From Nitrosopumilus sp. (GTDB taxonomy: Archaea; Thermoproteota; Nitrososphaeria; Nitrososphaerales; Nitrosopumilaceae), in the NCBI GenBank assembly GCA_965206745.1, contig OZ242220.1, forward strand, positions 1,760,001 to 1,824,000: 64,000 nucleotides of DNA, in the 5' to 3' direction. Numbering within the stretch: position 1 is the stretch's first letter; every line of letters starts with the position of its first letter. Positions 4,130 through 39,469 of the stretch are shown in pieces. A model generated the notes under the pieces. That model made no database searches, had not been told where the DNA came from, and saw only the letters and a program-made list of their open reading frames with translations. The translations under genes and the position numbers were made by a program.

Positions 4130-5062
4130 TCACCACGACAAGTAATACGGTGCAAAGTAATGCAGAATATTCATCATGAGCTTTTGTACCTCTCCAATTA
4201 AGGGACTGTATGGTTCAGTGGATTGATTGCATGCATTCTGTAATCGTGCCGTATGTTCTCGATGTTCAATTATAATTGGAAGATCTCCAGTCATGCTCAC
4301 TATTTGTCCTACTGTGTCATGTTTTACAGTGTCTATGTTTACATGAATCTTTAATCGGCCCGTGGATGCATCAATTCCTGTACCTATCACAGAGTCGATC
4401 ATGAATAATCTGGGCGCGACAAAAGACATTCTGTCTTCTAACTCATCAGGTATTTCAATTACTTGAATCGACGGTACCAGCATGTTGAATTCGGCGGATA
4501 TCTCTTCTATCATTTGATCATTTGCCAGTATGGCAGCTTGTGTAGAATCATCACCGGGAGCTGCCTTGAGTTGCCTGTTCTGTTCCAATAAATCAGGTAG
4601 TGGAGCAGCAACACTTTGGCTCTGGTCGGTGAATTCGTGACTAAGTGCAGCACGAGTGGCATAATCTAGACTGGTCCTGACTGGAAATATGATAACGGGG
4701 TTGATGGTGCTGTTGTACAGATGATCCTCGTCTACGACAGTGTCTATTGCTGAATGACGGTGTGATTTATGAGCCAATACAAGGTTGTACAGGTATTCCT
4801 CGTTTCCGATGTCACATCCTCTTTGATTGCATCCTATGCACGCTTTCTGATTTAGATAGTGCCGATAGTCCTCGTTTACCATGTCATGCGGCAGTTTCAG
4901 AGTCGTGTTGTTGTACAGGTGATCCTCGTCTACGGGGATTGTATTTGGAAGGGGATCATCAAGTCCGGGCTCTATTTGGCCAAAAGATTCGCCGATTCCA
5001 AAAGTCATTACAGCTACCAAAGAGGCAAACAGTATCGTGTTGACTGTTTTTTTATCATCCAT
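4130..5062 (-). pseudogene. Secreted protein, probably a frameshifted and truncated pre-pro S1 (chymotrypsin-like) protease
   Basis: Signal peptide and long pro-like region. After ...EPYSPLIG a shifted frame reads GTKAHDEYSALLCTV; no TAGHC or GDSG before the convergent GT28 gene. Confidence 0.45.
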
Positions 5063-5503
5063 GTTCTTACACCCCCATGCATCTTTATGATATAATAATT
5101 ATCAATGACTGTTCTGGTCAAATACAGTGATCGGATCATCATTTGTGGGCAGAGCCAGACAGGATGATGCAAGCAGAGGCATAGATAACTTATCTGCGTA
5201 TTTTATAATAGACAACATAGAATATCAATTCGAAAACACCTACCCAAAAAATCCAAATGACAACTCCCTTTTTCCAACACTCTTTTGCTTGGTCCTCTGT
5301 TAGTGTTAATCTGTAATCATCAGGTTGCACATAACAGCCATTTGGAGCACTTGCCCAGATAACCCAAAATTACAAAACAGATGCCTGCCGTAACTACCAG
5401 GCTTAAATTTAGAACATCCATGACAGGAAATGTCAACGAGTGATTGATAAATCCTGTATAATCAAATGCTTAATAGAAGGCAGTTTGGTTTTGATAGAGT
5501 GCC

Positions 5504-6919
5504 ATGACAAAGCTGATAGTTGCCAAATTTGGCGGTAGCGCACTTGGTCCGGATGGCCAGACTATCCCAAAAGTCATCCAAAGGATCACGGATCTGAAAA
5601 AGGATTCCAAAGTCATTGCCGTCTTTTCGGCCCCACTGACAATGCACAACGAGAAGAAGCGCTCGCTGACAGACGTGGTACTAGAGCAGGGCAAGAATGC
5701 AGAGGATGGCACAAAGCCGTCCCTGGAGACTGTAAAGTCGACTTATCAGAGGATTCTAAAAATGGTTAATCAGGACAACAGGGAGAACTGTGAGAAGACG
5801 ATCCAGCACCACCTAGAGAAGGCACAGGGGGCGCTTGATAAAGCCTATGAGAGCAGAGAGTTTGCAAACGAGATCCGCTCTGAGGCACTGGGATTTTCAG
5901 GAGAGATTCTAATGTCGCATGTGATGAACCACATCCTGAGGAGCAACGGCATGAAAGCCGAGGCAGTAAAATTTGAAGACTGGCCGATAGTAACTGACAA
6001 GAATATAGAATTTACAAATTTTCTCACCGCCGAGTCCAGGGAAAAGATGGGCAAGACAGAGCAGCTGGTAAAAGACAACGATGTTGTCACCATAGGCGGA
6101 TTCATCGGCAAGACAGTGGATAACATCACCACGACGTACGAGCGCGGCGGTTCGGACAGGACGGCAGCAGACCTCGGGATACTGTTCCACAGAAAATACC
6201 AGACCAGCATAGACTTTGAGAAGGACAGCTCGGTGGTATCAGCCGATCCTAGAATTGTGGATTCGGATCTAAGGGAGATCACCCAGCTGTCGTACAACGA
6301 GGCAAGGCTGGCAGGAATGTTCGGAATGAAGATCCTGGATCCGATTGCAATAAAGGAGATTGTCGAGAACGGGGTGGACATGCCAATCACCATCACCAAC
6401 ATGAAGAGCCCTGAAAAGACGACCACGATAAAAAGAAACCTGCAAGAACAAAAGGGGCATCCGATAAAGATAGTCACGGGAAAGGAGAACTGCGCCATCT
6501 TTAGAATAGAGACAAGCGCGGTTCAGAAACTACTGACATCCCTGGAGAAGGACAAGCATTACAGCGAGTTTGTCATACTATCGCCATTTACAAAGGACGG
6601 AATCGAGTTCTCCAGGATACTGTTTCTGGATGGGGACTATGTAAAGAGGAATGAAAAGTATCTGCTGGGATTTGACTCGCTTGCCACAATAACGTACAAC
6701 AGGGGGGTCATAACGCTGATCGGTGATGAGATGTGGAGGGTGCAGCAGGTGGCATCGAGGACCAGTGCAAAGATAGGCCAGTCAGGACTGAACATACTGA
6801 ACATGGATGCACAGGAGGAGACCTCGCGGATAATCATCGTCGTGGAGGATGCGCATGGCAACATCGAGAAGGCCATTGCGGCAATACACCAGGAGATCTC
6901 TAGGAATAATTTTGAATAA
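5504..6919 (+). CDS. lysC: Aspartate kinase
   Basis: VAKFGGS, RGGSDRTA, SADPR, LSYNEA, C-terminal ACT region. Confidence 0.9.
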   Translation: MTKLIVAKFGGSALGPDGQTIPKVIQRITDLKKDSKVIAVFSAPLTMHNEKKRSLTDVVLEQGKNAEDGTKPSLETVKSTYQRILKMVNQDNRENCEKTIQHHLEKAQGALDKAYESREFANEIRSEALGFSGEILMSHVMNHILRSNGMKAEAVKFEDWPIVTDKNIEFTNFLTAESREKMGKTEQLVKDNDVVTIGGFIGKTVDNITTTYERGGSDRTAADLGILFHRKYQTSIDFEKDSSVVSADPRIVDSDLREITQLSYNEARLAGMFGMKILDPIAIKEIVENGVDMPITITNMKSPEKTTTIKRNLQEQKGHPIKIVTGKENCAIFRIETSAVQKLLTSLEKDKHYSEFVILSPFTKDGIEFSRILFLDGDYVKRNEKYLLGFDSLATITYNRGVITLIGDEMWRVQQVASRTSAKIGQSGLNILNMDAQEETSRIIIVVEDAHGNIEKAIAAIHQEISRNNFE

Positions 6920-6921
6920 TG

Positions 6922-7025
6922 AAAAGTGGCGTTACGGGCTCTCACCTGTAAACCGCCATTCATGGGTTTATTCTTGGACCGTTATCTAGACTTAGTCCGG
7001 CGTTACCCAAAACACGCGATACCAT
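6922..7025 (-). ncRNA. Candidate two-hairpin small RNA
   Basis: Stems TGGGT/ACCCA with GGAC/GTCC, and TGGCG/CGCCA; TAAATA about 20-25 nt upstream; TTTT at the 3' end. Confidence 0.4.
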
Positions 7026-7069
7026 ACGTTATAGTTACTAGTATTTAGAGTTGATCCATATAGATCCGT

Positions 7070-7285
7070 TCACACACGCTCAGCTGCATACCAAAGGACG
7101 ATGCCGGCGCCCAGCAGGGCATACCACTTGAAGTTCCTCCTGTTTAGAAAGACGTTTGCAGAGCCTGCGTCCTCATCCCTGTATGTAGTCAGGCGAATCT
7201 TTCTCATCTCAAATGCCTGACCGACCAGGCCCATTACAAGCAATGCTATTCCGGCAAATCCCAGGGTCCACTCCATGGTTACCAC
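7070..7285 (-). CDS. Small 2-TM membrane protein
   Basis: Two hydrophobic segments, core-like composition. Confidence 0.7.
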   Translation of the reverse strand: MVTMEWTLGFAGIALLVMGLVGQAFEMRKIRLTTYRDEDAGSANVFLNRRNFKWYALLGAGIVLWYAAERV

Positions 7286-7368
7286 TTGCGGGCAATCAGA
7301 TATGTAGTTTGGTATGAAATACCAATCAAAGTTAATTCTTTAAATTAGCATGGATCTTTTGCTCACCT

Positions 7369-8283
7369 ATGAAGGAGGTCGGCAAGATATGGATGAACGG
7401 CAGACTGGTACCGTTCAAGGATGCCAAGGTTCACGTGTTAACTCACGCATTACACTATTCAACATCAATCTTTGAGGGGATCAGATGTTATGATACCCCA
7501 AACGGATCCGCAATCTTCAGACTGCCTGAGCATGTTGACAGATTCTTCAAGTCTGCAAAGCTGTACTCGATGAAGATGCAGTTCTCAAAGAAGGCAATCT
7601 CTGATGCGATTGTAAAGACGGTGCAGGCAGGAGGACTCAAGGAGTCGTACATCAGGCCGCTGGCATACTACGGGTATGGTACGATGGGACTGACCCCGAC
7701 TCCAAACAAGGTGGACGTCTCAATCTCATGCTGGGAATGGAGGATGGGCGAGTCAAAGGCAGGCAAGTTTTCAGGTGCAAAGTGCAAGGTGTCAAGCTGG
7801 ACCAAGATCGATTCTAGATCCCAGCCGATGCAGGCAAAGGCCGCATCAAACTATGCAAACGCGGCACTTGCAAGAATGGAGGCACTCGATGGCGGATACG
7901 ATGAGGCCATCATGCTGAACCATCAAGGCAAGGTTGCAGAGGGAAGTGCCGAGAATATATTCATAATCAAGGATGACATAATTCAGACTCCGCCACTCTC
8001 GGCAGGAGGGTTGGAGGGAATCACCAGGGACAGCATTATACAGATCATCGAGGAGAACGGGAGCTTTGTAGTAGAGAGGGATCTGGAACGCGACGACCTG
8101 TACAATGCAGATGAGATCTTCATGACAGGTACGGCAGCCGAGGTAAAGTCCGTAAGCCAGGTAGACAGAGTAAAGATTGGCAGCGGAAGGATGGGCAGCA
8201 TCACCAAGGCACTGCAAAAGTCATTTACAGACGTGGTCATGGGCAAAGACGAGAGGTTCCTGCCCTGGCTAAAGTTTATCTGA
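7369..8283 (+). CDS. ilvE: Branched-chain amino acid aminotransferase
   Basis: ALHYSTSIFEGIRCY, AKAASNY, EGSAENIF, LEGITR, FMTGTAAEV. Confidence 0.95.
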   Translation: MKEVGKIWMNGRLVPFKDAKVHVLTHALHYSTSIFEGIRCYDTPNGSAIFRLPEHVDRFFKSAKLYSMKMQFSKKAISDAIVKTVQAGGLKESYIRPLAYYGYGTMGLTPTPNKVDVSISCWEWRMGESKAGKFSGAKCKVSSWTKIDSRSQPMQAKAASNYANAALARMEALDGGYDEAIMLNHQGKVAEGSAENIFIIKDDIIQTPPLSAGGLEGITRDSIIQIIEENGSFVVERDLERDDLYNADEIFMTGTAAEVKSVSQVDRVKIGSGRMGSITKALQKSFTDVVMGKDERFLPWLKFI

Positions 8284-8323
8284 GTTCCATGAAGTTTTTT
8301 ACCTGCAAGGGATACTGCTAATC

Positions 8324-8485
8324 ATGGATTCATGCTCTACTGGAGATGCACAGGAGATCTGCTGGTTCTGCAGAAAGGATCGCCATGAGGACTGCATGGG
8401 GGAGATTCCCACGCAGGGAAGATCAGATGGGCCGCATGACTGCACGTTTGACACAAAGCTTGTTCCCTGCAAGTGCAGGCACTGA
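8324..8485 (+). CDS. Small Cys/His-rich protein (53 aa)
   Basis: Not in the ORF track: MDSCSTGDAQEICWFCRKDRHEDCMGEIPTQGRSDGPHDCTFDTKLVPCKCRH; fills the ilvE-methyltransferase gap on the same strand. Confidence 0.65.
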   Translation: MDSCSTGDAQEICWFCRKDRHEDCMGEIPTQGRSDGPHDCTFDTKLVPCKCRH

Positions 8486-8521
8486 CATAATATCAAATAC
8501 AGCTTGTTCCTCATTGATTAC

Positions 8522-9076
8522 ATGGACTATGACGAGGGGTTTTGGGACAGATATGCAGATGATAACGAGTCAAGATACAACGAAGAGTTTGCAAAGTTTG
8601 TCAGGGATTTGGCTACATCACTGCGCTGTACAAGCGTGTTGGAGGTGGGCTGCGGGACGGGAATCGACCTGAGGCTGTTTCCAGATACGATTCAGTTCGG
8701 GGGCATTGATCCAAATGATCATGCGTTAAACATTGCAAGGGACAGACTGCCGGATGGAAACTTTGATAATGGTACCATAACTGAGCTGCCCTTTGAGGAC
8801 TCGTCAGTAGACTTTGTATTCACCCACGGGCTGATGAACTATCTGGAGGATGAGACAATCGAGAAGGGAATATCAGAGATGTTCAGGGTTGCTAGAAGGT
8901 ACATCATGAACTGTGAAAAGTTTGGAGAGACAGAGGATAGGATTGACCAGAACCATACATCACGCAACATGCAGAAGAGATGGTCAGGGTATGATGTCAG
9001 AGTCGTAAGCAATGTCGATATGCACGAGGAGATTGAACCGGACAAGCCAAGGTTTACGCTGTTGAGAAAACTGTAA
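8522..9076 (+). CDS. Class I SAM-dependent methyltransferase
   Basis: VLEVGCGTG, LPFEDSSVDFVFT; ATG 8522 preferred. Confidence 0.9.
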   Translation: MDYDEGFWDRYADDNESRYNEEFAKFVRDLATSLRCTSVLEVGCGTGIDLRLFPDTIQFGGIDPNDHALNIARDRLPDGNFDNGTITELPFEDSSVDFVFTHGLMNYLEDETIEKGISEMFRVARRYIMNCEKFGETEDRIDQNHTSRNMQKRWSGYDVRVVSNVDMHEEIEPDKPRFTLLRKL

Positions 9077-9283
9077 GGTCTTGGTTTGATTAATACTGTT
9101 AACTACAAGATGGAATCTGGCAATCAGGATTCAAGTCATGTCATCTCACCTTTGAACAGTGATTTTTGAATTTGAAGATCATGTTTTAGCTCATCTTTGT
9201 ACAGTAACTAGAAGAGATTACTATTCTTGACCAGAGCTATTTTTTAGGAGAACTATTTATCGATCATATTTATTCTGTTTAAC

Positions 9284-11065
9284 ATGGTTAATCAAAATAA
9301 ACCTCTCAAAGCCCCTTCTCTTACAGATGATTTGATAAAACAGGATTTTGAAGATGTTTTGTATGCTTTTTTTGATCTTGAGGATTTATGTAAAAAAGAT
9401 TCATTACACACTAAGAACTATGTAACGATTAGATTAGCAACCATTATTGAACAGTTTTGTAGAAAAATTGTAGAAAATCAAATCAAACATAAAAAAGGCA
9501 AGATTCCTAAAGAAATTACAATCAAGACTCAAGATTTGGATGAAATCATCAAAGCACATACCAAGTATGTGACAAAAAATATTTCCAACGATGTTCAAAA
9601 TTTAGATAAGATTGGTGAAATAAAACAAATTGTAATTGCTGCATCATATTCATTTCAAAATATAGATGCAATAAAAGATTTGAAAGATTATAAAATTATA
9701 GGAATTTTTGATGATGATAATCTAAAAAAATCGATAGATAAATTAATATCAAAACGTCACGACGTTGTTCACACAGTTATTGACACTGATTATGATGTAC
9801 AAAAAGGATTTAAAGAAACAGAGAAACTAATAAAGATAATTTTATCTAAATCCACTTTTAAAAATGAATCCGTTTTTTACGCTATACGAGGTTATTATAA
9901 ATTAACAAAAGAAAAATATAAAGATGCAATAGAATCGTATGATGAATCAATTAGGATCAAACCTAATTATTTTACATATGTTGGTAAAGGCAATGCACTA
10001 TACCAACTTGAAAGATATGACGATGCAATAGGATCGTATGATGAATCAATTAGGATCAAACCTAATTATTTGGCATATGCTGGCAAAGGCAATGCACTAT
10101 ACCAACTTGAAAGATATGACGATGCAATAGGATCGTATGATGAATCAATTAGGATCAAACCTAATTATTTGGCACATAATGGAAAAGGCGATGCACTATA
10201 CCAACTTGAAAGATATGACGATGCAATAGGATCGTATGATGAATCAATTAATACTGAACCTAATTATTTGGCATATGCTGGCAAAGGCGACGTACTATAC
10301 CAATTTAGAAGATACGATGATGCAATAGGATCGTATGATGAATCAATTAGGATCAAACCTAATTATTTTACATATGTTGGCAAAGGCAATGCACTATACC
10401 TACTTGGAAGATATGACGATGCAATAGGATCGTATGATGAATCAATTAGGATCAAACCTAATTATTTGGCATATAATGGAAAAGGCGATGTACTATACCT
10501 ACTTGGAAGATATGACGATGCAATAGGATCGTATGATGAATCAATTAATACTGAACCTAATTATTTGGCATATAATGGAAAAGGCGATGCACTATACCAA
10601 CTTGGAAGATATGACGATGCAATAGGATCGTATGATGAATCAATTAATACTGAACCTAATTATTTGGCATATAATGGAAAAAGCAATGCACTATACCAAC
10701 TTGGAAGATATGACGATGCAATAGGATCGTATGATGAATCAATTAGGATCAAACCTAATTATTTGGCATATAATGGAAAAGGCGATGTACTATACCTACT
10801 TGGAAGATATGACGATGCAATAGGATCGTATGATGAATCAATTAGGATCAAACCTAATTATTTGGCATATGCTGGCAAAGGCGATGTACTATACCAACTT
10901 GGAAGATACGATGATGCAATAGGATCGTATGATGAATCAATTAATACTGAACCTAATTATTTGGCATATAATGGAAAAGGTGATGCGTTATCTCAACTTG
11001 GTAGGGATGAAGAGGCAAAATATTGTTATGAATCAGTAAATAAATTAAAAACAAAAACTACATAA
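9284..11065 (+). CDS. Putative HEPN-domain plus tetratricopeptide-repeat protein
   Basis: N-terminal ~200 aa helical domain with IRLATIIEQF and KRHDVVH (Rx4H); C-terminal 11 x 33-aa TPR-like repeats. Confidence 0.8.
   Translation: MVNQNKPLKAPSLTDDLIKQDFEDVLYAFFDLEDLCKKDSLHTKNYVTIRLATIIEQFCRKIVENQIKHKKGKIPKEITIKTQDLDEIIKAHTKYVTKNISNDVQNLDKIGEIKQIVIAASYSFQNIDAIKDLKDYKIIGIFDDDNLKKSIDKLISKRHDVVHTVIDTDYDVQKGFKETEKLIKIILSKSTFKNESVFYAIRGYYKLTKEKYKDAIESYDESIRIKPNYFTYVGKGNALYQLERYDDAIGSYDESIRIKPNYLAYAGKGNALYQLERYDDAIGSYDESIRIKPNYLAHNGKGDALYQLERYDDAIGSYDESINTEPNYLAYAGKGDVLYQFRRYDDAIGSYDESIRIKPNYFTYVGKGNALYLLGRYDDAIGSYDESIRIKPNYLAYNGKGDVLYLLGRYDDAIGSYDESINTEPNYLAYNGKGDALYQLGRYDDAIGSYDESINTEPNYLAYNGKSNALYQLGRYDDAIGSYDESIRIKPNYLAYNGKGDVLYLLGRYDDAIGSYDESIRIKPNYLAYAGKGDVLYQLGRYDDAIGSYDESINTEPNYLAYNGKGDALSQLGRDEEAKYCYESVNKLKTKTT
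9920..11009 (+). repeat. 11 tandem 99-bp coding repeats (TPR units)
   Basis: gatgcaataggatcgtatgatgaatcaatt recurs every 99 bp (one substitution in unit 1). Confidence 0.97.
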
Positions 11066-11079
11066 ATATTTTAAATTAT

Positions 11080-11259
11080 TTAAAACAATAATTCCAAATC
11101 TTTGAAATTCTTCAATACTGTGTTTTCTTTTTTGTTGATTTTGTATATAGTTATCAATGATCTTGTTTGACTTACAGTTCCATCCACAAGCCCAAGATCT
11201 GTTAAACCATTGAGAATGATTGTAAGAGTTGCCCTGTTTATCTGTAAAAAATTTAACAT
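11080..11259 (-). pseudogene. Winged-helix regulator fragment (59 aa)
   Basis: Different frame from the listed 11045..11293 ORF: MLNFLQINRATLTIILNGLTDLGLVDGTVSQTRSLITIYKINKKENTVLKNFKDLELLF, resembling the recognition helix and wing of archaeal wHTH proteins. Confidence 0.4.
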
Positions 11260-11387
11260 CTTTGACTCTGGTCATAAACGGTGATCTGATCACTAATCTT
11301 GACTAGAACCGAGTGGATCACTATATTTGACCAAGATCATGGATCAGTTAAATCAAAGTGATGATCCAAACTGACAGTGAATAATAG

Positions 11388-11720
11388 ATGACCTTTCTTC
11401 CAACCCTTCTAAGGACCAACATGAAAAAGATAGTCATAATTCTCATATGTTTGACCATACCAATCCAGATAACCGTGACGTTTGGACTGGTGGTTACTGG
11501 TTCTCCTTTCTGTTATGAGGCAGGGCAGTATAAGTCAGAAGAGGATAAGAAATCTGACAATCCTAATCATGCGGTTCTTTCTGACATAGAAATTAAATGT
11601 ACTTGGGAAATAGATGCTTTATTCAAATTATATTACATTTTACCCTTAACCATTGTAACAATGCCCATAGTGTTGATAGTTTTCTCAATCTATTATGTGA
11701 TAAAGAGAAGAAGAGTTTGA
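11388..11720 (+). CDS. Hypothetical 2-TM membrane protein
   Basis: Two TM segments flanking a loop with two Cys; basic C-terminus. Confidence 0.6.
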   Translation: MTFLPTLLRTNMKKIVIILICLTIPIQITVTFGLVVTGSPFCYEAGQYKSEEDKKSDNPNHAVLSDIEIKCTWEIDALFKLYYILPLTIVTMPIVLIVFSIYYVIKRRRV

Positions 11721-11926
11721 GATTCTTTCCAGTTTTAGTTGATTTCTTCATCATATGTAGGGACATGCAATAACAACACGGTAGAAAGCAACTGGTACGC
11801 TTACAATATTCCTATTTTTCTGTGCATGAATTGATCTATAACATGACATATTCTTCGACGGTCACCTTTGGTTAAAAAAATTAGATCTGAATGATCCATT
11901 AAGGACTAGATTGACTTCCATGGATC

Positions 11927-12172
11927 TTGCACCTTGATTCAGATGCTTTGGAAGAAAAATGGCAGGAAGAATATCAGAAATTAGACAGAGCTTATTACAG
12001 ACTTCGTGCTTACTATAATCGTAATAGGAAATGTAAATGTCGTCATATTAACGAGTGTGATCATTTTGATGTCGTGCTTCAAAAAGTACTAGGGGATAAA
12101 GCACGGAAATTACGTCAATCTGGATTTGATATTAATTTTAGAAAATATTACGAGATAATGAAATCAGATTAA
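11927..12172 (+). CDS. Hypothetical protein with CxCxHxxxCxH motif
   Basis: RKCKCRHINECDHF. Confidence 0.5.
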   Translation: MHLDSDALEEKWQEEYQKLDRAYYRLRAYYNRNRKCKCRHINECDHFDVVLQKVLGDKARKLRQSGFDINFRKYYEIMKSD

Positions 12173-12720
12173 ATTTCCAAGAATTTCCCGGATTTTCTTT
12201 ACATCGTATTTGTCTTTGAATCTTTTGAAATTTTCATTTAATTTCACAATATTATAAGTTGCTACAGGAATAGATGGGTTACTTGTAAAATCTCTTACTG
12301 ATTCTTGTAATTTCTTTTTTGTTATTACACAAACAGCTGATGGCATAGATGAAAGCGGTTTGAATCGGAATTCCTCAAGTACTTGTTGATCCTGCTTCTT
12401 ATCCACGGATGGCCGCCATGTATTAGTCCTAAAGGAATATGCATCGTAACCATACCAATGTAATGTCAGAGAATTCGCTACACCATTTGTAGATTTTTCT
12501 ATGCAAGAAGCCAGTCGTAAGATTTTGTCTTGAGATCGCCCTCGAAGTAATGATAATTTAAGAGAACTGTTTGTATTTTTTTTATTTGGTGTCCTTCCAA
12601 AAAAGGATATTGCTTTATTGCACTGTAAAATATAGTGGTGTTTTCACTCACCTGTAAAGTTCGTGTGCTTTCAGTTCTATCTAGGTAGTTACTACCATCG
12701 GGTCTTATTTCTATCACAAA
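12164..12720 (-). pseudogene. Disrupted hypothetical gene abutting the tRNA-Lys 3' end
   Basis: The 12164..12406 frame stays open upstream to about 12645 with no ATG and overlaps a second open frame (12499-12720), consistent with a frameshifted remnant. Confidence 0.35.
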
Positions 12721-12728
12721 AAAGGAAG

Positions 12729-12802
12729 CGGGTCTAAAGGGATTCGGACCCTTGACAACCGGATTAAGAGTCCGGTGCGCTACCTGGCTGCGCCATAGAC
12801 CC
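12729..12802 (-). tRNA. tRNA-Lys(CTT)
   Basis: GGGTCTA...CCGGA CT CTT AA TCCGG...AAGGG TCCGAAT CCCTT TAGACCCG. Confidence 0.93.
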
Positions 12803-12867
12803 ACCAAAGTAATTAGGCTCAGAGTTGTTATTAATCTTGAGATTTTAAAATGATTGAAAATTCAGTT

Positions 12868-13467
12868 TTATGCCTTTGCTTCAATCTCGTTGTATTTTTC
12901 AATGATTGCAGTAAGTGCAGTTGAGACAGGTACGTCGTTCATCTTTTTCTTTTCTGCCAAGAGCTTTTGGTATGCATCCAGTGTAATGTATACCGGAATC
13001 GAGCCGTTTCCTTCAAGTAGCCCCCTGACATTATACAGGGCAGTCTCCATTCCCTTTTCGGCAGACTTGGCAAACTTTGCCTTGTCCAGTATTGCGCCTA
13101 GCGGGCCAAACGGCATGTCATAGTCGACTGACATGGTCACCCTGGTAAGATTATTGCCTAGTGCCTTAAACTCGTTGATTATCTGCCAGTTCTTGAAGGG
13201 ACCTTCAATCTGCTTGGCAGTGATCCTCTCATTTTTGATAAACTCTGTTGTCTCACAATCCCACTCTAGGCGTTTTCCGCTAAAGTCACCGATAATTCTA
13301 AAGGTTGTTCCAACGCCCATTCCTTCCTTTATATCCATAGGAACGACTGTCATGCCTACGGTGTCGTTTTTGATCTGATCAGAGACGTGCTCTGGTCTTG
13401 CAAAGTAGGTAAAGACATTCTCTACGGGTGTCTTTATGTCGATTGATTTTGTAACGAGGGTCAACAT
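12868..13467 (-). CDS. SRPBCC (START/polyketide cyclase-like) family protein
   Basis: SIDIKTPVENVFTY, EGPFKNW, TRVTMSVDY.PFGPLG. Confidence 0.85.
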   Translation of the reverse strand: MLTLVTKSIDIKTPVENVFTYFARPEHVSDQIKNDTVGMTVVPMDIKEGMGVGTTFRIIGDFSGKRLEWDCETTEFIKNERITAKQIEGPFKNWQIINEFKALGNNLTRVTMSVDYDMPFGPLGAILDKAKFAKSAEKGMETALYNVRGLLEGNGSIPVYITLDAYQKLLAEKKKMNDVPVSTALTAIIEKYNEIEAKA

Positions 13468-13561
13468 TTGGGTTTCTTGGCAATAAGGATTTAAAGGTTT
13501 TGAAGATTTTTACGCAAGAATTGATTTACAATATATTCACCGAGTTTGCACGTTATCTTAA

Positions 13562-14080
13562 ATGATTAAAAGGCGATCAGTTCTGTTGGTACTGGTTTTG
13601 GCCCTCTCTGCATCAGGTGCCGGCTCGGCATACGCGCATTCCATGTTCAACTCCGCTGAGCAGTCATACGGCGGGTACAGGGTCCAGGTGGCAACGGCAC
13701 CGGAATTCCCACAGATCGACGAGCCGTCCCAGTTTCTAGTCAAGGTAACGGAGGGATTTGACTATGACGAGGTGGACAGTTTTACGATGGGGATCAGGGT
13801 GTACTATAACGGGCAGCAAGTCGATGCGATCCCGCCTACACTGATAGAGGGAGCACACTGGGACTTTGACTATACTTGGAGAAACATAGGGAATCATGTA
13901 GTCAAGGTGGACTTGTATAATGCCGATGAGGCAGGTGATGTTCTGACCTATACGTTTAACATGGGAACGCAGAGCCCATTTGGGATACTGTTTATAGGTG
14001 CGATCACTACTGGTGCCCTGGTAATGACGGGAGTAATGCTGTATATTTACCTGCCAAGGGTCTTTAAGAGATCTAAGTGA
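13562..14080 (+). CDS. Secreted, membrane-anchored protein with His at mature position 1
   Basis: Signal peptide SAYA|HSMFNS; C-terminal TM. Confidence 0.75.
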   Translation: MIKRRSVLLVLVLALSASGAGSAYAHSMFNSAEQSYGGYRVQVATAPEFPQIDEPSQFLVKVTEGFDYDEVDSFTMGIRVYYNGQQVDAIPPTLIEGAHWDFDYTWRNIGNHVVKVDLYNADEAGDVLTYTFNMGTQSPFGILFIGAITTGALVMTGVMLYIYLPRVFKRSK

Positions 14081-14516
14081 TCGAAGGCTTTGGGGATCTT
14101 GCGATCCTAAATGCAAACAGGGTGGTCAGCAGAACCATGGCAAACAGCCAGATTCCTATTCCCAGGTGAACTGCAACTAGTACTGCGTGAAGCTGCGTGT
14201 CAATTACCAGTGCGCCCAGCGTAATCTGGGTGATCACCAGTATAGTCGCAGTCACGCTTGTAACCTTGATTTTAAAGTCAGAGTTCCTGTTGATCAGGCT
14301 TGCAACCATGGTTGCAATCACCAGTGCTCCTGTCGTTGCAGCAACGGTCCTGTGAATCCACTCGATGAGGTACTCCTCAGAGGGCATCACCCCGTTGGGG
14401 CACAGGGGCCATTCGGGGCAGGTCAGTCCGAGTCCGGCAGCTGAGATATATCCGCCAATGAACATCAGCGAGTACAGGACAACCAGTGTCGTTAGGGCAA
14501 GGTATTGGATTGCCAA
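14073..14516 (-). CDS. ctaA: Heme A synthase (CtaA/COX15, short archaeal form)
   Basis: GLTCPEWPLCPNG, EWIHR, VHL. Confidence 0.9.
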   Translation of the reverse strand: MAIQYLALTTLVVLYSLMFIGGYISAAGLGLTCPEWPLCPNGVMPSEEYLIEWIHRTVAATTGALVIATMVASLINRNSDFKIKVTSVTATILVITQITLGALVIDTQLHAVLVAVHLGIGIWLFAMVLLTTLFAFRIARSPKPSIT

Positions 14517-14518
14517 AA

Positions 14519-15481
14519 TTATTCTACGATAAAGTTGCCTTGCATGCCCAGAAATGCGTGGCCTGGAACGGTACAGACGTAATAGTAATTTCCTGGCGCG
14601 CCGGCAGTAAATGTGACACTCTCGCTCTGACCGGCAGCCAGTGAGTTGGATACGGATCCGATTGCCGAGTCCATGACTATGCTGTTGACGTCCTCAGGAT
14701 TTGAGACGACTCCAAAGGCATGGGGGGATCTGCCGGCATTGTTTACAGTTACAGTTACAGTATCCCCAGAGTTTACACGGATCTCAGGATTGTTTCCCTC
14801 CTCGCCAGATAAGGCATTAAACGCATAAGAACTAAAATCTTCAGCTTCTACAAAGTCCAAGGCCAGATCGTGTGATACGCCCGTCGGGGCGGCTGCCACT
14901 GCCGGTGAGCCGTCTGACGGGGTGATGATGATCTCCCCGACCATTCCCTGCTCCCTGTGGCCTGGAACCGTACAGATGTAATAGTAGGTTCCCTCCTCGC
15001 CTGCGATAAACTCAGATGAGCCGCCTTTGCCCGATGTCAGCGGGTTTGTTGCCAGTCCAATCTCACTTCCAGGTACGATACCGGCAAAGCCTTCATCATT
15101 TTTGGTCACACCAAAGGCATGCACGCCTATACCGCCATTATCAACATTGAAGGCTATCTTGTCACCGACACTCATCTGGATTGTCGGATTGCCCCCCTCC
15201 TCTCCAGGCAGGGCGTTAAACCCCAAAATTCTCAGGTCCGATGACTCTACAAACGTAAGATCCTGCGTTATGGTCTTGCCAGTCTGCGTTCCCACCTTGT
15301 GATCGACTTTGCCTGCCATCATTGCTACAACGGGGGCAGGTTCGGATATCCAATAGTCCCACAGTGAGAAGAATATTCCCCCGCCGACTATGCAGATGCC
15401 CAACATGATGATCATCATCTTTCCGGTCCTTTCCGTAGTCGTTCTGTAAACTTGGGTATTATCGTGACTCATCTCATGCAT
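14519..15481 (-). CDS. Membrane-anchored tandem cupredoxin (plastocyanin/azurin-like) blue copper protein
   Basis: Two copies of HAFGV...YYYxCTVPGHxxxGMxG. Confidence 0.9.
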   Translation of the reverse strand: MHEMSHDNTQVYRTTTERTGKMMIIMLGICIVGGGIFFSLWDYWISEPAPVVAMMAGKVDHKVGTQTGKTITQDLTFVESSDLRILGFNALPGEEGGNPTIQMSVGDKIAFNVDNGGIGVHAFGVTKNDEGFAGIVPGSEIGLATNPLTSGKGGSSEFIAGEEGTYYYICTVPGHREQGMVGEIIITPSDGSPAVAAAPTGVSHDLALDFVEAEDFSSYAFNALSGEEGNNPEIRVNSGDTVTVTVNNAGRSPHAFGVVSNPEDVNSIVMDSAIGSVSNSLAAGQSESVTFTAGAPGNYYYVCTVPGHAFLGMQGNFIVE

Positions 15482-15484
15482 CTC

Positions 15485-17011
15485 CTAATGTGACGGATTC
15501 TTTGCCTCAAATGGGTAATAGTACTTGCCGCCGACTCCGAATGGATCCTCGGTATTTGCAAGCGGTCCCTTTCCTGAACTGTGAATCATGTTTGCTAAGA
15601 AGATTGCCATACTGACACCTATAATCATTGCGCCAACTGATGCAATCTGGTTCATGGCAATCCATTCGGGGATTGGCGGATAATCAAATATTCTTCTTGG
15701 CATTCCGTACAGTCCAAGCACGTGCTGCGTGAAGAAGACCAGCACGGTTCCTACAAATGACATTATAAAGTGGATCTTGCCCATGGTCTCATTGTACATT
15801 CTTCCCGTCACATACGGGAACATGTAGTAGAGGAAGCCGATCGAGCCAAATGCGATGGTACCCATCACAAAGAGGTGAAAGTGTCCGACCACCCAGTACG
15901 TGTCGTGGGTAGTAAAGTCAAGCGGCATGGCAGCGTTTGCAACGCCGCCTGCACCTGCAGAGAAGAACAGTGCGATTCCGCCGACTGCCCACATCATTGG
16001 GGTTGAGAACTTTATTCTGCCGTTCCACATTGTTGCAACAAAGTTAAAGACGTGCATCGCAGATGCTGGAACTGCTGCAAGGGTTCCGACCATGAAGACG
16101 GTCTTTTCAGTAAATGACATTCCGGTTGCATACATGTGATGTGCCCATGATGAAAAGCCGACGATAGATAGCAGGACAAAGGCAAAGACTCCGGAATTGT
16201 AACTGTAGATTGGCTTTCTTGAGAATCTTGGAATAATCTCATACATCATGCCGATTGCAGGAATTACCAGCACATACACTTCAGGATGGAACGTAAACCA
16301 GAACAGGTGCGCATATGCTATAGGATCCCCGCCCATTGCGGGATTGAAGAATCCGCTGACTCCGAGCCTGTCAGTTAGCAGCATGAGAAGGGCTGCGGCA
16401 AATGTTGGAATTGCAACAAGAATGATTAGTGATGAGGACAGAAAGGACCATGCCAGCAACGGAACCTGGCCAATTGACATGTCAGGATGCTTGCATTTGA
16501 GGATTGTAACTACAAAGTTGATTGCGCCCAGTACCGATGAGATGCCCAGTATCTTTAGTCCGAATATCCACATGTCTGCTGCAGGACCGGGGGCGCTGAT
16601 GATGGAATACGGCGGCGTTGCATACCAGGTAAAGTCTGCAAAGCCCAGCCAGATAAGTGCCCCTGCAGGAGGAATCATCCAGAACGCAATTGCGTTGAGT
16701 TTCGGATATGCCATGTCCTTGTATCTTACCATGATTGGGACATAGTAGTTGCCTACTGCAGATGCAAAGGGAATGATGAACAAAAAGATCAGCGTCGTGC
16801 CGTGAACTGTAAATATTCGATTGAATGTCATCGCATCGCCGATGATCTGCGCGCCAGGCAGGAACAGTTCTGCCCTGATTGCAAGGGCCAGTGATCCGCC
16901 CAGGAACAGGAATGCAAGCGATGAGATAAGATAGAGCAGCCCAACATCAGTGTGATGTGTTGAGAACATTATTTGCCAGATTGGACGTGGCTTTTGTAAT
17001 TCTAGAACCAT
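15485..17011 (-). CDS. coxA: Heme-copper oxidase subunit I
   Basis: WFTFHPEVY, WAHHM, VGHFH. Confidence 0.97.
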   Translation of the reverse strand: MVLELQKPRPIWQIMFSTHHTDVGLLYLISSLAFLFLGGSLALAIRAELFLPGAQIIGDAMTFNRIFTVHGTTLIFLFIIPFASAVGNYYVPIMVRYKDMAYPKLNAIAFWMIPPAGALIWLGFADFTWYATPPYSIISAPGPAADMWIFGLKILGISSVLGAINFVVTILKCKHPDMSIGQVPLLAWSFLSSSLIILVAIPTFAAALLMLLTDRLGVSGFFNPAMGGDPIAYAHLFWFTFHPEVYVLVIPAIGMMYEIIPRFSRKPIYSYNSGVFAFVLLSIVGFSSWAHHMYATGMSFTEKTVFMVGTLAAVPASAMHVFNFVATMWNGRIKFSTPMMWAVGGIALFFSAGAGGVANAAMPLDFTTHDTYWVVGHFHLFVMGTIAFGSIGFLYYMFPYVTGRMYNETMGKIHFIMSFVGTVLVFFTQHVLGLYGMPRRIFDYPPIPEWIAMNQIASVGAMIIGVSMAIFLANMIHSSGKGPLANTEDPFGVGGKYYYPFEAKNPSH

Positions 17012-23502: not shown

Positions 23503-24321
23503 TCAAATTCCACCAGATTTAAAAAATATAACTCTTGGATAATCGCATGTTATACAAAATCTAGTTGATATTTCACTAGTTACAGTATCAGATATTCCAT
23601 CAGGTCCAATATAAGGAGAAAAAAATCCACTATCACAGGATGCAATCATAAAGTTGTATTTTATTTCAGGTGTTTCTAATTTTTGTTTCAAAGTAATAGT
23701 TTCAGCTAATATTAGTTCATCTTGATGATTTGGATGTTTACGTTGAAATCGATAAAGTTGTTTAGATTCTCTATTAATTTGCTCTTTGTGTGTATCAACA
23801 ACTTCCTTTTTTTGACCTGGCGTCCAATGTTCTTCTTCTGCAATAGGATTAGATCGAGTTTTTAATTCTTTAATTCGCCATCCTTTCTTGCTATATTTTT
23901 TCCATTTATCCATTAGAAAAGATGACATCTCTTTTACATCTGTTAAATTATTTTGTACATCAGATCTAATGAGTTTTGCTCGTATTAAAGATCTTAAAAG
24001 ATTTCTCATTTTATGATCAGATGAATTCATTATAGCAACTGAATTATTGTAAAAAATTTCTTTTCTATGCACATCAGTCAACCCTGATGGAATAAAAACA
24101 CTTTTTACTGCTTTTGCTAAAACATGAAAAGATTCAGATCTAACTTTTGGTACAATATATCCGATTTTTTTATGATGGTATTTTCGAAATAAGCTAAATA
24201 ATTGAATAGATTGATCATAGAATTCATGTTTTATTTCAGTGTCAAGTTCAGCAATATTTTGAATTATACTTGCAGCTACAAGAACATTGGTGTCTACTAT
24301 AACTTTTGGATCAGTCATCAA
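23503..24321 (-). CDS. PIN-domain protein
   Basis: IVDTNVLVAA, VRSE, QDELILAE, IASCDSGF acidic motifs. Confidence 0.7.
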   Translation of the reverse strand: MMTDPKVIVDTNVLVAASIIQNIAELDTEIKHEFYDQSIQLFSLFRKYHHKKIGYIVPKVRSESFHVLAKAVKSVFIPSGLTDVHRKEIFYNNSVAIMNSSDHKMRNLLRSLIRAKLIRSDVQNNLTDVKEMSSFLMDKWKKYSKKGWRIKELKTRSNPIAEEEHWTPGQKKEVVDTHKEQINRESKQLYRFQRKHPNHQDELILAETITLKQKLETPEIKYNFMIASCDSGFFSPYIGPDGISDTVTSEISTRFCITCDYPRVIFFKSGGI

Positions 24322-24871
24322 CTACCCTATAATGATCATCAGATTTTATGTTTAACTTATCCATTAGTTGTGTAAAGCGATATCGTAAATTATCTTTATC
24401 AATAGAATCTCTATCAATCTCTAATGATTCAATTAAATTTCTATCAGCTGCTACATTTCTCAGCTTTCTAGTTTTTTCTAAAATTATATTTATTGTATAT
24501 TCAGAAATAATATTTTCTTCAGACATTTTTAGTACAGTGTCTATTTGAGGCATCAAGATTAAAGAATCTGCTGCAACTTTTGGATTATCATTCATAATTT
24601 GAGACTTTTCAAATCTGTCTTCCATTTTTCCTAAAATTAATTCTACATTTCTTGCAGCTTGATAAAAATAAAATGCATCAGTGCTAGGATGTTCAAGCCA
24701 TTTAGTTTTAATTTCACATAAAAATTTTCTAAGTTGTTTTAAATTATCCAGTATTGACAGATCAACTTTTCCTGTTTCTTCCATATGATTTAGGGAATCA
24801 TTAATTTCCTGAATAATCTGTTCTCTCATCTTTAGTTTACTCCTTTCCCGCATATATAATAACAATTTCAC
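24311..24871 (-). CDS. Hypothetical helical protein translationally coupled to the PIN gene
   Basis: AT-rich ORF whose stop overlaps the PIN start. Confidence 0.65.
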   Translation of the reverse strand: MKLLLYMRERSKLKMREQIIQEINDSLNHMEETGKVDLSILDNLKQLRKFLCEIKTKWLEHPSTDAFYFYQAARNVELILGKMEDRFEKSQIMNDNPKVAADSLILMPQIDTVLKMSEENIISEYTINIILEKTRKLRNVAADRNLIESLEIDRDSIDKDNLRYRFTQLMDKLNIKSDDHYRVVDD

Positions 24872-27630: not shown

Positions 27631-27707
27631 TCAATGAAAAGATACGAGTAACCTCACACATGCATTCAATGATAAATACAGGTTTAAGGCGTGGCTAGCT
27701 GTGATTT

Positions 27708-28331
27708 CTATTTAAAATTAAAGTAATTTAGTTTTGTCAGAATATTTTCAAGCGTGACATCGTTGTATCCTGAAACTTCAAAGGTATGGGCGCCTGAATT
27801 TTTTGCAGCAAGAATTCCTTTTGGAGAGTCCTCTACAATCATACATTCTTTCGGATCCAATTCTAATCTAGACATAGCTTGCAAGTATCCTTCTGAAGAG
27901 GGTTTAGGGGATGAAACATCCTCATTAGAAATTACAAAATCCATATATTCAAGCTGTCCTGTTTTATCCAACATTAAAAGAGCAGTTTTTCTAATACTAT
28001 TTGTAACACATACTCTCTTGTAAGATTTTGTAGCATCATGCAGCCTAATTTTATTTGGATCAACAAACGCATCTTTTTTAATTACTTCAATTGTCAAATC
28101 CTGTTTTTTTTCCCATATTAAATCAAAATCACTTTTTTCTATTCTTTTTTGTTCCAAAAGAATTTCAAGTTTTCTCATTGTTGGAAGACCATTAAAAGTT
28201 TGGATATGCTCATCTCGCTTAATTGTAAAATTCTTTGCTTGTTCTAATGCCAGATTAAGTGATTGATAATGCCATTCTGTTGCGTCAACTAAAACTCCAT
28301 CAAGATCATATAAAATTGCCTTAATCATCAT
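27708..28331 (-). CDS. HAD-family phosphatase
   Basis: YDLDGVLVD, VTNS, KPS, VEDS. Confidence 0.9.
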   Translation of the reverse strand: MMIKAILYDLDGVLVDATEWHYQSLNLALEQAKNFTIKRDEHIQTFNGLPTMRKLEILLEQKRIEKSDFDLIWEKKQDLTIEVIKKDAFVDPNKIRLHDATKSYKRVCVTNSIRKTALLMLDKTGQLEYMDFVISNEDVSSPKPSSEGYLQAMSRLELDPKECMIVEDSPKGILAAKNSGAHTFEVSGYNDVTLENILTKLNYFNFK

Positions 28332-28881
28332 TCCAATATTTCGGCATATCGGTACAAATTGCATCTGCTGAAATAGAATTTACAATTTCCTCAAATTGTT
28401 TGATTTCAAATTTTCTTCCATGAAGTTCAGGAGAAACAAGTGCAACTTTTAGATGTGACTTTTGTAATGATTTTAAAAAGTCAACGTCATACCAAATTTT
28501 TTCAAAACAATCTAGCCAAACCCAGTTGCAGTTTGGGATTATTTCCTTTTCATACTCACTCAATCTGAATGCACAATTCAAGTTATGTTTTATGGATTTT
28601 AGTAAAGAAGGGATACTATGATCAAATGTAAAATAGTTTTCAAAGCCATACTTGCCAAGGATTTTTTTTAATTCAAGCTCAATTTCTGAGGATTTTACGT
28701 TTATGGATAGAAACGTTTCATTGGGAATTTTATCAAGAAATGATTCTAAATCAGGTGAATTCCCATCTGGTGGATCATGTGATAGAACCAATTTATCTCC
28801 AAAATCCCTTACATCAATTTCTGCCCCATATCGATCATCAAAGAGTTCGATGGAATTTGTTCTATGTTTTAAAATTATCAT
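28321..28881 (-). CDS. PLC-like/GDPD-like protein of capsule loci
   Basis: HRTN, GAEIDVR, LSHD, NVK, RLSEYE, WLDCF, VSPELH, ICTD. Confidence 0.7.
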   Translation of the reverse strand: MIILKHRTNSIELFDDRYGAEIDVRDFGDKLVLSHDPPDGNSPDLESFLDKIPNETFLSINVKSSEIELELKKILGKYGFENYFTFDHSIPSLLKSIKHNLNCAFRLSEYEKEIIPNCNWVWLDCFEKIWYDVDFLKSLQKSHLKVALVSPELHGRKFEIKQFEEIVNSISADAICTDMPKYWNDD

Positions 28882-28963
28882 GAATCTTTCTATAATTCTG
28901 CATATTCAAGTCTTTTTTAGTATAAAATGCAATTTTATATGAAAGTATAAGATATTTTTTAAT

Positions 28964-29698: not shown

Positions 29699-29752
29699 AA
29701 ATGACAATTCCAGTTTTATCATACAGAACTTTTAAAATTATTTGTAATGATT

Positions 29753-30640: not shown

Positions 30641-30726
30641 AATTCATAAAAACATGCCAGATAAAAATTTTTAATTTTTCCAGTATACTTTTTAAGAATC
30701 ATGTTGGAGAGAAACACAGAGAATTC

Positions 30727-31740: not shown

Positions 31741-31764
31741 AAAATGAAATTTACAAGGAGATTT

Positions 31765-32775: not shown

Positions 32776-33145
32776 TTAAAATTCAATGTGAGTATTATAA
32801 TATAATGATTTATCACAGATGCCATCAAAGCAGTCAACACATTGATTAGATGTGTTGAATGTGATGTTGAGTGTGTAATTTTTCATTTGAAAAAAATAAG
32901 AATATGTCTTTAAAAGTGATTGTAAAAATTTCGGTACAAAAAAATCACAAAATACCCATAACCATCAAAAGAAAAACATTCAGAGTCAACAATTTTAAGA
33001 TACTAGAGTCAATTTGACATTAAAGCATGGAATAAACTGGGCCATATAATGTCAGAGATGTGATTAATGCGCCTAAAATTAGAAAAATGCACACAGGTAC
33101 TTTATTTTCAATATTTTCAACGATGCATGTAATTCAATAATTAAT

Positions 33146-34967: not shown

Positions 34968-35124
34968 AGATGTAGTTTGTATCAGATTTCTATTTCATAT
35001 AGTTTATGCTAATTTTGACTCTTGAGTTAAAAAGAATAAAGAAAAATATTATTGGAAAATGATAATCCTGAAATCAATGCGTGGCAATTATAAAATAATT
35101 TACAGTATTTTATGAATTAGTCAG

Positions 35125-36252: not shown

Positions 36253-36317
36253 TATTTTTTGTGAAATTTAATGAAGATATAAACGTGTAATAAATTTTGC
36301 AGTATTTAAAAAATCTG

Positions 36318-39413: not shown

Positions 39414-39469
39414 TGAAGATGGGATTTTTGAATAGATAAATTAATTATTGATATTAAATTTGTCATAAT

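Follow-up and report, generated by a model that had tools for sequence, protein, structure and literature searches.

HepS, a single HEPN protein encoded by prophage Gifsy-1, is described in its abstract as acting in abortive infection by sensing a phage tail-tip protein and cutting tRNA anticodon loops (PMC13043305). The excerpts of the DefensePredictor study (PMC13092281) describe the CBS-HEPN protein DS-11, which makes up a defence system by itself and no longer defends once its HEPN catalytic residues are mutated. Table 1 of PMC3710099 gives the RiboL-PSP-HEPN family as bacterial, fused to endoRNase L-PSP, linked to ParB in operons and conserved in the Rx4-6H motif. The same table lists LA2681, C6orf70 and DZIP3/hRUL138, which are HEPN proteins with Rx4-6H that are either fused to tetratricopeptide repeats (TPRs) or located beside TPR genes. 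A table in the review PMC10952713 places PF18735, the Pfam family of RiboL-PSP-HEPN, under the validated systems PD-T4-2, PD-T4-5, PD-T7-3 and ApeA. We analysed a 64,000-nucleotide stretch of a Nitrosopumilus sp. genome (contig OZ242220.1, positions 1,760,001 to 1,824,000; hereafter the window), which carries at 9284-11065 on the plus strand an intact gene whose product very probably begins with a HEPN domain of the PF18735 type and continues as a predicted TPR solenoid.

The likeness of this HEPN-TPR protein to the RiboL-PSP-HEPN family consists of a Pfam score above the curated cut-off and of the Rx4-6H motif, which is conserved in both. However, the founding members have the L-PSP fusion and the ParB operon, whereas here the fusion is to TPRs and the carriers are Nitrosopumilaceae. 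We found no L-PSP or ParB in the protein or among the neighbours that were scanned, which marks a different architecture and not exclusion from the PF18735 family; these traits of context come from the 2013 description and lie outside the Pfam model. The combination of HEPN with TPRs is in general not new, because LA2681, C6orf70 and DZIP3/hRUL138 have it, but these belong to other HEPN families, and among the Pfam HEPN models at E <= 1 the window protein matched PF18735 alone. Pairs of HEPN and nucleotidyltransferase (MNT) proteins (PDB 7ae2, 5yep and 8xdj) are among the closest solved folds (Z 9.3-10.0), supplied the best HEPN rows in Foldseek and have the same type of motif. They have an adjacent MNT gene, however, whereas the window gene has none and is fused to TPRs instead, and the window HEPN domain is about 60 residues larger than that of the HEPN-MNT toxins because of a helical insert.

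With HepS we propose a likeness in that one polypeptide would both sense and act, and the HepS structure (9oik_A) was among the structural neighbours of the window protein (Z 7.3). HepS is nevertheless a single HEPN-domain tetramer whose abstract mentions no TPR arm, and searches of the PDB gave no sequence similarity to it. DS-11, as described in the excerpts of its report, is alike in that one gene joins a domain for sensing or regulation to a HEPN nuclease; it differs in being bacterial and in having a CBS domain, proposed there to bind an adenine derivative, in place of the protein-binding repeat. The window protein is no close relative of PD-T4-2, PD-T4-5, PD-T7-3 or ApeA, since the PADLOC models for these gave no match. 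Judged by title and abstract, no paper in the literature that we searched concerns a TPR-fused archaeal subfamily of RiboL-PSP-HEPN, although supplements such as Additional file 1 of PMC3710099 may contain one. Earlier work already covers the HEPN domain, the RiboL-PSP-HEPN family and the joining of HEPN to TPRs in other HEPN families. New relative to the searched papers is a RiboL-PSP-type HEPN domain that is as a rule joined to a TPR solenoid and is confined, in the searched genomes, to the Nitrosopumilaceae.

The HEPN domain and its conserved motifs

The open reading frame (ORF) of the gene starts with ATG and is free of internal stops, and the closest relative, P0002, whose N-terminal part is 88-89% identical, has the same start position. 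The gene and its parts are as follows.

9284..11065, plus strand: coding sequence of the HEPN-TPR protein, 593 residues plus stop
9284..9850, plus strand: predicted HEPN domain, residues 1-189 (Pfam, AlphaFold2 model, VIA-align)
9449..9463, plus strand: E56-x3-R60, the Ex3[KR] motif of helix-2 (conservation in 74 sequences; description in the excerpts of PMC3710099)
9755..9772, plus strand: R158-H159-x3-H163, the catalytic motif Rx4H, which closes helix-3 at its C-terminal end (conservation, model)
9869..11056, plus strand: TPR solenoid, residues 196-591, 12 helix pairs of 33 residues each (Pfam TPR_1, full-length model)
9916..11001, plus strand: near-identical DNA tandem array, 99 nucleotides x 11.0 copies, 90% matches (Tandem Repeats Finder)

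The first-pass annotation of this DNA had proposed a HEPN ribonuclease from two features of the N-terminus, a "helical E-containing segment" and an Rx4H motif within the peptide KRHDVVH. Both features were confirmed. The segment IRLATIIEQFCR, residues 49-60 of the protein, ends in the helix-2 Ex3[KR] motif E56...R60, and KRHDVVH, which holds R158-x4-H163, lies exactly at the nucleotides given for it. In support of the HEPN assignment itself, residues 44-187 matched PF18735 (HEPN_RiboL-PSP) with E 8.5e-8 and 32.8 bits, relative to a curated cut-off of 28.4 bits, when residues 1-210 were used as the query. The score was 29.4 bits with the whole protein and 32.1 bits in a scan of the 1.86-Mb genome, where this was the single PF18735 match. 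The nearest neighbours in the language-model space of the ESM Atlas were also PF18735 clusters (scores 0.83-0.84), which the tool itself rates as a lead only, and NCBIfam returned sub-threshold rows for TPR families alone.

The conservation of the motifs was evaluated in homologues collected by a phmmer search with residues 1-210 against 1.84 billion cluster representatives, which gave 86 matches at E <= 0.001, 45 of them at E <= 1e-10; counted in clusters at 50% identity, the family is small, with 86. The pattern R[HN]xxxH was present in 73 of 87 homologues. The 14 without it, which comprised 13 fragments of 174 residues or fewer and a doubtful match of 1018 residues (P0085), were kept out of the alignment. 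In the resulting 74 sequences, which are 21-89% identical to the query, only E56, R158 and H163 are invariant, and L51, T53, Q57, F58, R60, Q125 and H159 are conserved in at least 90%, with N at position 159 in the exceptions seen. The first-pass annotation had named two outcomes that would overturn it, a non-HEPN fold of the N-terminal domain and a lack of Rx4H conservation among homologues; neither was observed, as the model described below has the HEPN helix order and R158 and H163 proved to be invariant in 74/74. An alignment of N-terminal parts only, from 20 genomic loci and the window (21 sequences), had the same three invariant columns, and PF18735 was found in 45 of the 74 aligned members at E <= 0.001. 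According to the excerpts of PMC3710099, the R of Rx4-6H in HEPN domains is followed by a polar residue (N, D or H), and helix-2 carries an acidic residue that typically belongs to an Ex3[KR] motif. Of 20000 shuffled versions of the first 200 residues, 1442 (7%) contained Rx4H and 3960 contained Rx4-6H. The motif alone is therefore not significant relative to chance, and the case is carried by its invariance among homologues together with the Pfam match and the fold.

An AlphaFold2 model of the N-terminal domain, built from the 21-sequence alignment, reached a mean predicted local distance difference test score (pLDDT) of 89.3 and a predicted template modelling score (pTM) of 0.86. Its helices are helix-1 (22-35), helix-2 (41-68), three insert helices (82-99, 109-120 and 127-136), helix-3 (145-163) and helix-4 (172-188), which is the canonical HEPN order with the insert placed after helix-2 and before helix-3. 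In this model E56-Q-F-C-R60 lies inside helix 41-68, and R158-H159-D-V-V-H163 closes helix 145-163. When the model was compared with 48,161 representative PDB chains in VIA-align, the 14 best rows were all of HEPN type (Z 8.3-10.5 over 109-124 residues, root-mean-square deviation 3.0-4.0), including AF_0298, YutE, the sacsin HEPN domain and three HEPN-MNT toxins, as well as the C-terminal part of AbiA, Csm6, HI0074 and ST0689. The HEPN nature of 11 of the 14 rows follows from the entry title or from PMC3710099; the remaining three, 1ufb, 5yep and 4txa, we take to be HEPN proteins. Sequence searches of the PDB returned just two rows at E ~0.2 (phmmer, residues 1-195) and none at E <= 10 with the 21-sequence profile. 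A Foldseek search of viral models (BFVD) gave no match at E <= 0.001, and its sole HEPN-named row stood at rank 28 with E 1.7. Taking the Pfam match, conservation and model together as three independent lines that agree, we consider it very likely that residues 1-189 adopt a HEPN fold with a conserved catalytic motif.

The TPR array and the family

Tandem Repeats Finder reported a single array at 9916-11001, with a period of 99 nucleotides, 11.0 copies, 90% matches, 0% indels and a score of 1682. In the protein this array forms 11 units of 33 residues, each starting with PNY, from residue 227 to 557. An array of 11 near-identical TPR units had been claimed for this gene; the 11 units of 33 residues were confirmed, but a further, divergent TPR precedes them at residues ~196-225, which makes 12 in all and accounts for the 12 stretches matched by Pfam TPR_1 (E 7.3e-73). 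At the DNA level units 1-10 are 84-98% identical, and unit 11 is 66-73% identical to the others. The full-length model (pLDDT 90.9, pTM 0.84) has 24 helices in this region, arranged as 12 helix pairs over residues 196-591, with a pLDDT mostly above 90 in the solenoid, which begins six residues past HEPN helix-4.

The differences among the units are unevenly placed. In units 1-10, positions 18-30, which make up most of the second helix, are constant, and variation is confined to positions 4-7, 10-12 and 15-17 in the first helix and to positions 31-33 in the loop before the next unit. The first helix of a TPR lines the inner, ligand-binding groove. Over all pairs of units the ratio of nonsynonymous to synonymous change (pN/pS) was 0.92, with 1.16 at positions 1-19 and 0.62 at positions 20-33. 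The first-helix value is suggestive of relaxed or diversifying change and is far from proof. The units are 83% identical to one another within the window gene and 85% within P0002 but only 67% between the two genes, even though their HEPN parts are 88-89% identical; this comparison used five full units of P0002, which has fewer units than the 11 of the window gene. The closer likeness of units inside one gene means that the TPR arrays are homogenised and resized in each lineage, and an array that gains, loses and homogenises units can change its binding specificity or reach quickly.

Contigs from public sequencing runs cover this part of the window; those of run X1 are identical to it, and those of run X3, from a second study, contained an N-terminal variant of the gene (30 differences in 679 nucleotides and a 3-nucleotide insertion). 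The presence of the variant in X3 means that the gene is not an artefact of one assembly; these contigs bear on its N-terminal part and were unable to confirm the number of TPR units.

Across the family, TPR_2 matched 56 of the 74 members in the alignment, and all 18 of the longer relatives retrieved with the N-terminal profile (343-2000 residues) had TPR-type Pfam families alone besides the HEPN part. As judged from these domain matches, the HEPN-TPR fusion is the rule in the family and no accident of one genome. Members of at least 280 residues span 283 to 574 residues, with 687 residues at one locus, and the repeat number therefore varies widely; short forms of ~210-260 residues without a clear TPR arm exist too. 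The clusters that we looked up (10 proteins) have 1-5 members each and come from metagenome assemblies. The single named homologue, from the metagenome-assembled genome (MAG) Candidatus Nitrosoabyssus spongiisocia, is called "tetratricopeptide repeat protein" by NCBI, which is how the first-pass annotation had expected automated pipelines to label such proteins.

The gene is rare. Within the Nitrosopumilaceae it was present in 15 of 400 other genomes, in 6 of 98 genomes of the genus and in 7 of 27 genera, counting the window's own. A sample of whole genomes had it in one of 24 relatives from the genus and in none of 16 genomes from other families of the order. A profile search detected it in 3 of another 56 family genomes but in none of the 344 genomes taken from 60 other families of the phylum. 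Of five homologue loci on genome contigs, four belong by title to Nitrosopumilus, Nitrosopumilaceae or Thaumarchaeota MAGs, and the fifth is on a 3-kb contig binned as an alphaproteobacterium. It is a rare accessory gene that is confined, in the searched genomes, to the Nitrosopumilaceae. We also observed 6-7 matches per genome in g18, a genus of this family with large, high-GC genomes (guanine-plus-cytosine content, GC, ~0.7), some of them within 6 kb of one another (G111 C1:1172528-1178699; several places in G129), which indicates a lineage-specific expansion of the HEPN-TPR family.

Genomic setting of the gene and of its homologues

The gene lies in an AT-rich interval between a methyltransferase gene and a tRNA-Lys gene, and the features around it are listed here.

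5504-6919: amino-acid kinase (aspartate kinase), left flank
7369-8283: class IV aminotransferase, left flank
8504-9076: S-adenosylmethionine (SAM) methyltransferase, left flank
9077..12727: AT-rich variable interval from the methyltransferase gene to tRNA-Lys, GC 0.32
9163..9237, plus strand: dispersed element of ~55-75 nucleotides, 46 nucleotides upstream of the start codon (copies in the genome)
11045-11293, minus strand: small flanking ORF
11388-11720, plus strand: small flanking ORF
11927-12172, plus strand: small flanking ORF
12164-12406, minus strand: small flanking ORF
12728..12802, minus strand: tRNA-Lys (CTT), also found by the Rfam scan
C1:1370992-1371068 (minus), 1436238-1436293 (plus) and 659370-659417 (plus): copies of the 9163-9237 element

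The interval has a GC of 0.32 relative to 0.47 on its left (5000-9076) and 0.48 on its right (12803-17000), and the gene itself has 0.31, with 0.26 in its N-terminal part and 0.34 in the array. As the tRNA-Lys gene is on the minus strand, its 3' end points toward the HEPN-TPR gene, which is 1.66 kb away; an AT-rich gene past the 3' end of tRNA-Lys is what had been reported. Beyond the tRNA the right flank encodes an SRPBCC protein, a CtaA-like protein and a cupredoxin. In five relatives from the genus the methyltransferase and SRPBCC genes likewise bracket tRNA-Lys, and the interval measures 1.1, 2.5, 2.6, 3.5 or 12.2 kb. What these intervals encode is unrelated (a histidine kinase together with a response regulator, a cyclase, or NYN and others), and none of the five had any blastn or blastp similarity to the window interval. 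The tRNA-Lys site is thus a variable spot, because both the length and the content of the interval differ among relatives.

The earlier claim of a tRNA-Lys-linked island was upheld only as regards a variable, compositionally foreign interval, as neither an integrase, a repeat of the tRNA end nor conserved cargo was found. None of the five small ORFs encodes an integrase by Pfam or PHROGs, the interval contains no plasmid or viral genes, and there is no copy of the tRNA-Lys end within 8800-13200. The four or five small ORFs between the HEPN-TPR gene and tRNA-Lys received no Pfam or PHROGs assignment; PHROGs gave nothing for the HEPN part and just E ~0.04 rows for the neighbouring ORFs of 82 and 80 residues. 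ORFs in the intervals of two relatives that looked recombinase-like by eye were dropped, as they had no Pfam match. A true integrative island is not demonstrated; what we observed is a compositionally foreign, variable islet beside a tRNA.

An imperfect inverted repeat that flanks the gene at 9215-9236 and 11266-11287 (22 nucleotides, 77%) was considered as a pair of transposon ends and rejected, since its arms belong to different dispersed sequences, one to a short element upstream of unrelated genes and the other to the conserved upstream region of a small paralogous gene family. The short element, at 9163-9237, has three other copies in the genome, which are 80-82% identical, in the same orientation and each just upstream of an unrelated ORF, and the metagenome contigs break at it. 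A shared promoter-proximal or regulatory element is one possibility and a small RNA another; an Rfam scan of 8900-13000 returned the tRNA alone.

Two further sequences of the interval recur in the genome. The ORF at 11388-11720 (110 residues, hydrophobic N-terminus) and the 125 nucleotides upstream of it have at least seven paralogous copies (window 11263-11745; 69-86% nucleotide identity), which stand in arrays at C1:1686.6-1688.5 kb and 1707.7-1711.9 kb with a spacing of ~540 nucleotides and have no Pfam match. A 62-nucleotide stretch at 12613-12674, just past the 3' end of tRNA-Lys, recurs with 85-94% identity at C1:225022-225077 and C1:228818-228879, where it is intergenic in a tandemly duplicated gene pair (~419 and ~591 residues) and lies upstream of each 591-residue gene.

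No conserved neighbour of the gene was detected across the related loci examined, and no member of the MNT family was found in the flanking ORFs of the window or among the scanned neighbours in loci L004, L005, L008 and L024. At four loci from genomes of high GC, the GC of the gene falls 0.10-0.21 below that of its locus (gene and locus GC 0.37 and 0.56 in L005, 0.39 and 0.57 in L006, 0.40 and 0.61 in L008, 0.44 and 0.535 in L024). A DDE transposase adjoins the homologue in L004 and in L024, and an rve transposase does so in L008. The HEPN-TPR gene has probably moved horizontally; it seems to travel among genomes of the Nitrosopumilaceae, where it is at times retained and amplified.

Two of these loci have additional features. 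At L005:3808-7270, where the locus GC is 0.56, a TIR_2 protein (GC 0.39) and a Schlafen-AlbA_2 protein, which are defence-type genes, lie near the HEPN-TPR homologue. At L008:7395-8549 a TPR-less HEPN homologue of 220 residues begins one base past the stop of a 163-residue ORF without a Pfam match; the gene pair is AT-rich (0.40-0.44, in a locus of GC 0.61), and the rve transposase is 1.4 kb downstream. This pair may be a two-gene version of the HEPN-TPR system.

Elsewhere in the window, a long AT-rich stretch at ~27700-47100 (GC 0.29-0.36) carries nucleotide-sugar and glycan biosynthesis genes, among them those for GDP-mannose dehydratase-like enzymes, epimerases, a UDP-GlcNAc 2-epimerase, a dTDP-sugar isomerase and reductase, a UDP-glucose dehydrogenase as well as several glycosyltransferases, and by these gene assignments looks like a surface-glycan island. 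Two adjacent ORFs of 272 and 186 residues at 23503-24871 on the minus strand form another AT-rich patch (GC 0.28-0.29) and have no Pfam match at E <= 1e-8.

Proposed function and its alternatives

The best explanation overall, to which we give about an even chance, is that the protein is a one-polypeptide RNase with a regulatory repeat arm. That the HEPN domain is an active RNase is likely from its conservation and its model. A role in conflict or defence, with the TPR arm as sensor or regulator, is a serious possibility by analogy with HepS and DS-11 and from a weak context (a patchy distribution, AT-richness, and mobile or defence-type genes beside some relatives), although we would put it slightly below even. 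Dimerisation that brings two Rx4-6H motifs together is common in HEPN RNases. Such enzymes are called "typically dimeric" in the excerpts of PMC13092281, and those of PMC3710099 describe their catalysis as metal-independent RNA cleavage by a catalytic histidine. From this established HEPN biology, H163 would be the catalytic histidine, assisted by R158, H159 and E56, in a metal-independent cutting of RNA that would leave 2',3'-cyclic phosphate ends, and two HEPN domains together would probably be needed to build the active site. By analogy with single-protein HEPN defence, the TPR arm might keep the RNase inactive until a trigger protein is bound, which would most plausibly come from a virus or another mobile element. 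The released RNase could then cut tRNA, rRNA or mRNA, so that growth would stop in an abortive infection.

A more specific version, which we offer tentatively and regard as rather unlikely in its full form, is that of a lineage-restricted, single-protein innate immune sensor of ammonia-oxidising archaea. Its homogenising array of near-identical TPR units would be a ruler or bait that can be extended, directed at a viral protein that is repetitive or abundant, for instance a capsid or tail-like polymer. Binding would release the RiboL-PSP-type HEPN RNase and shut down translation, and the gain, loss and conversion of units would let specificity evolve.

Several observations weigh against the main reading, an RNase with a regulatory repeat arm. 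With the HEPN part (residues 1-210) PADLOC-DB v2.0.0 gave RmrA alone, at E 0.0072, and with the whole protein it gave the generic "TPR" model PDLC01172 alone, at E 4.4e-12. The genes within 10 kb in the window are housekeeping and not defence genes. The HEPN-TPR architecture is fixed, without swapping of sensor domains, which is less typical of modular defence effectors. The g18 homologues share the GC of their host and are multi-copy, so that homologues are not foreign everywhere. The pN/pS of 0.92 fits relaxed or concerted evolution equally as well as diversifying selection. As regards the fold, the VIA-align Z scores of 8-10.5 are below ~13, a level that helical bundles may reach without kinship according to the caution given with the tool, and Foldseek found no match in the PDB at E <= 0.001, its best HEPN toxin (7ae6_B) having E 0.29 and a probability of 0.80.

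Some of these observations would be expected if the protein were instead a cellular RNA-processing or regulatory RNase, in which the TPRs tether the HEPN domain to a complex of the host (the ribosome, a chaperone or the machinery of RNA degradation, for example) for a task in stress response or RNA quality control and not against viruses. TPRs are general protein-protein scaffolds, the window neighbours are housekeeping genes, all 18 longer relatives are TPR fusions, the g18 copies resemble a resident gene family in copy number and composition, and no known defence model was matched. However, with 15 carriers among 400 other family genomes and 6 among 98 of the genus, the gene is distributed too patchily for a core function, it is strongly AT-rich relative to its flanks here and at four other loci, its relatives have transposase or TIR/Schlafen neighbours, and the host interval differs among all five relatives examined. 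We therefore consider a cellular role unlikely. The foreign composition and the transposases next to the homologues in L004, L024 and L008 would agree as well with a selfish toxin or addiction module of a mobile element, held in check by its own TPR arm or by an unrecognised small neighbour and stabilising the DNA that carries it instead of protecting the cell. HEPN RNases often serve as the toxin in toxin-antitoxin pairs (PMC3710099, Table 1), and small ORFs without a family assignment do flank the gene. Yet those ORFs have neither a Pfam match nor a detectable counterpart in the intervals of relatives, no MNT or other conserved partner is adjacent here or at the five related loci examined, and the interval is free of integrase, plasmid and viral genes, which leaves an addiction module quite improbable in our view.

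The two remaining explanations have far less in their favour. It is very unlikely that this is an "eukaryote-like" TPR protein of a host-symbiont relationship whose HEPN domain acts on the RNA of host or symbiont. Sponge symbionts are enriched in TPR proteins, and the single named homologue comes from the MAG of Candidatus Nitrosoabyssus spongiisocia, a name that denotes a sponge associate, but homologues come from many metagenome contigs, the first 35 residues are polar by eye with no hydrophobic signal-like stretch, and the HEPN catalytic residues are conserved as in intracellular RNases. Least probable of all, to the point of being barely credible, is a protein that is merely a TPR scaffold with a catalytically dead or chance HEPN resemblance. 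The occurrence of Rx4H in 7% of shuffles, the lack of a significant Foldseek match in the PDB and the lack of a solved relative in the PDB sequence searches would all permit it; the Pfam score above the curated cut-off, the occupation of the 14 best VIA-align rows by HEPN entries, and the invariance of E56, R158 and H163 in 74/74 sequences at 21-89% identity all contradict it. The RNase with a regulatory repeat arm is therefore the reading that we retain.

Ammonia-oxidising archaea are among the most abundant marine microbes, and we take Thermoproteota to be the GTDB phylum name that includes them. In the excerpts of a 2026 survey of 7747 archaeal genomes, known defence systems are generally of low prevalence in Thermoproteota (PMC12988326). 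If the HEPN-TPR protein is a virus sensor, it would be an archaeal addition to the small set of single-protein HEPN sensor-effectors and would show in nature how a repeat array that homogenises itself lets specificity evolve, and if the immune-sensor reading is true, it would be the first antiviral effector described for the Nitrosopumilaceae beyond the standard catalogued systems. If it is not a virus sensor, the RiboL-PSP-HEPN family, which was bacterial in the 2013 table, would still be extended to archaea and would gain a new domain architecture.

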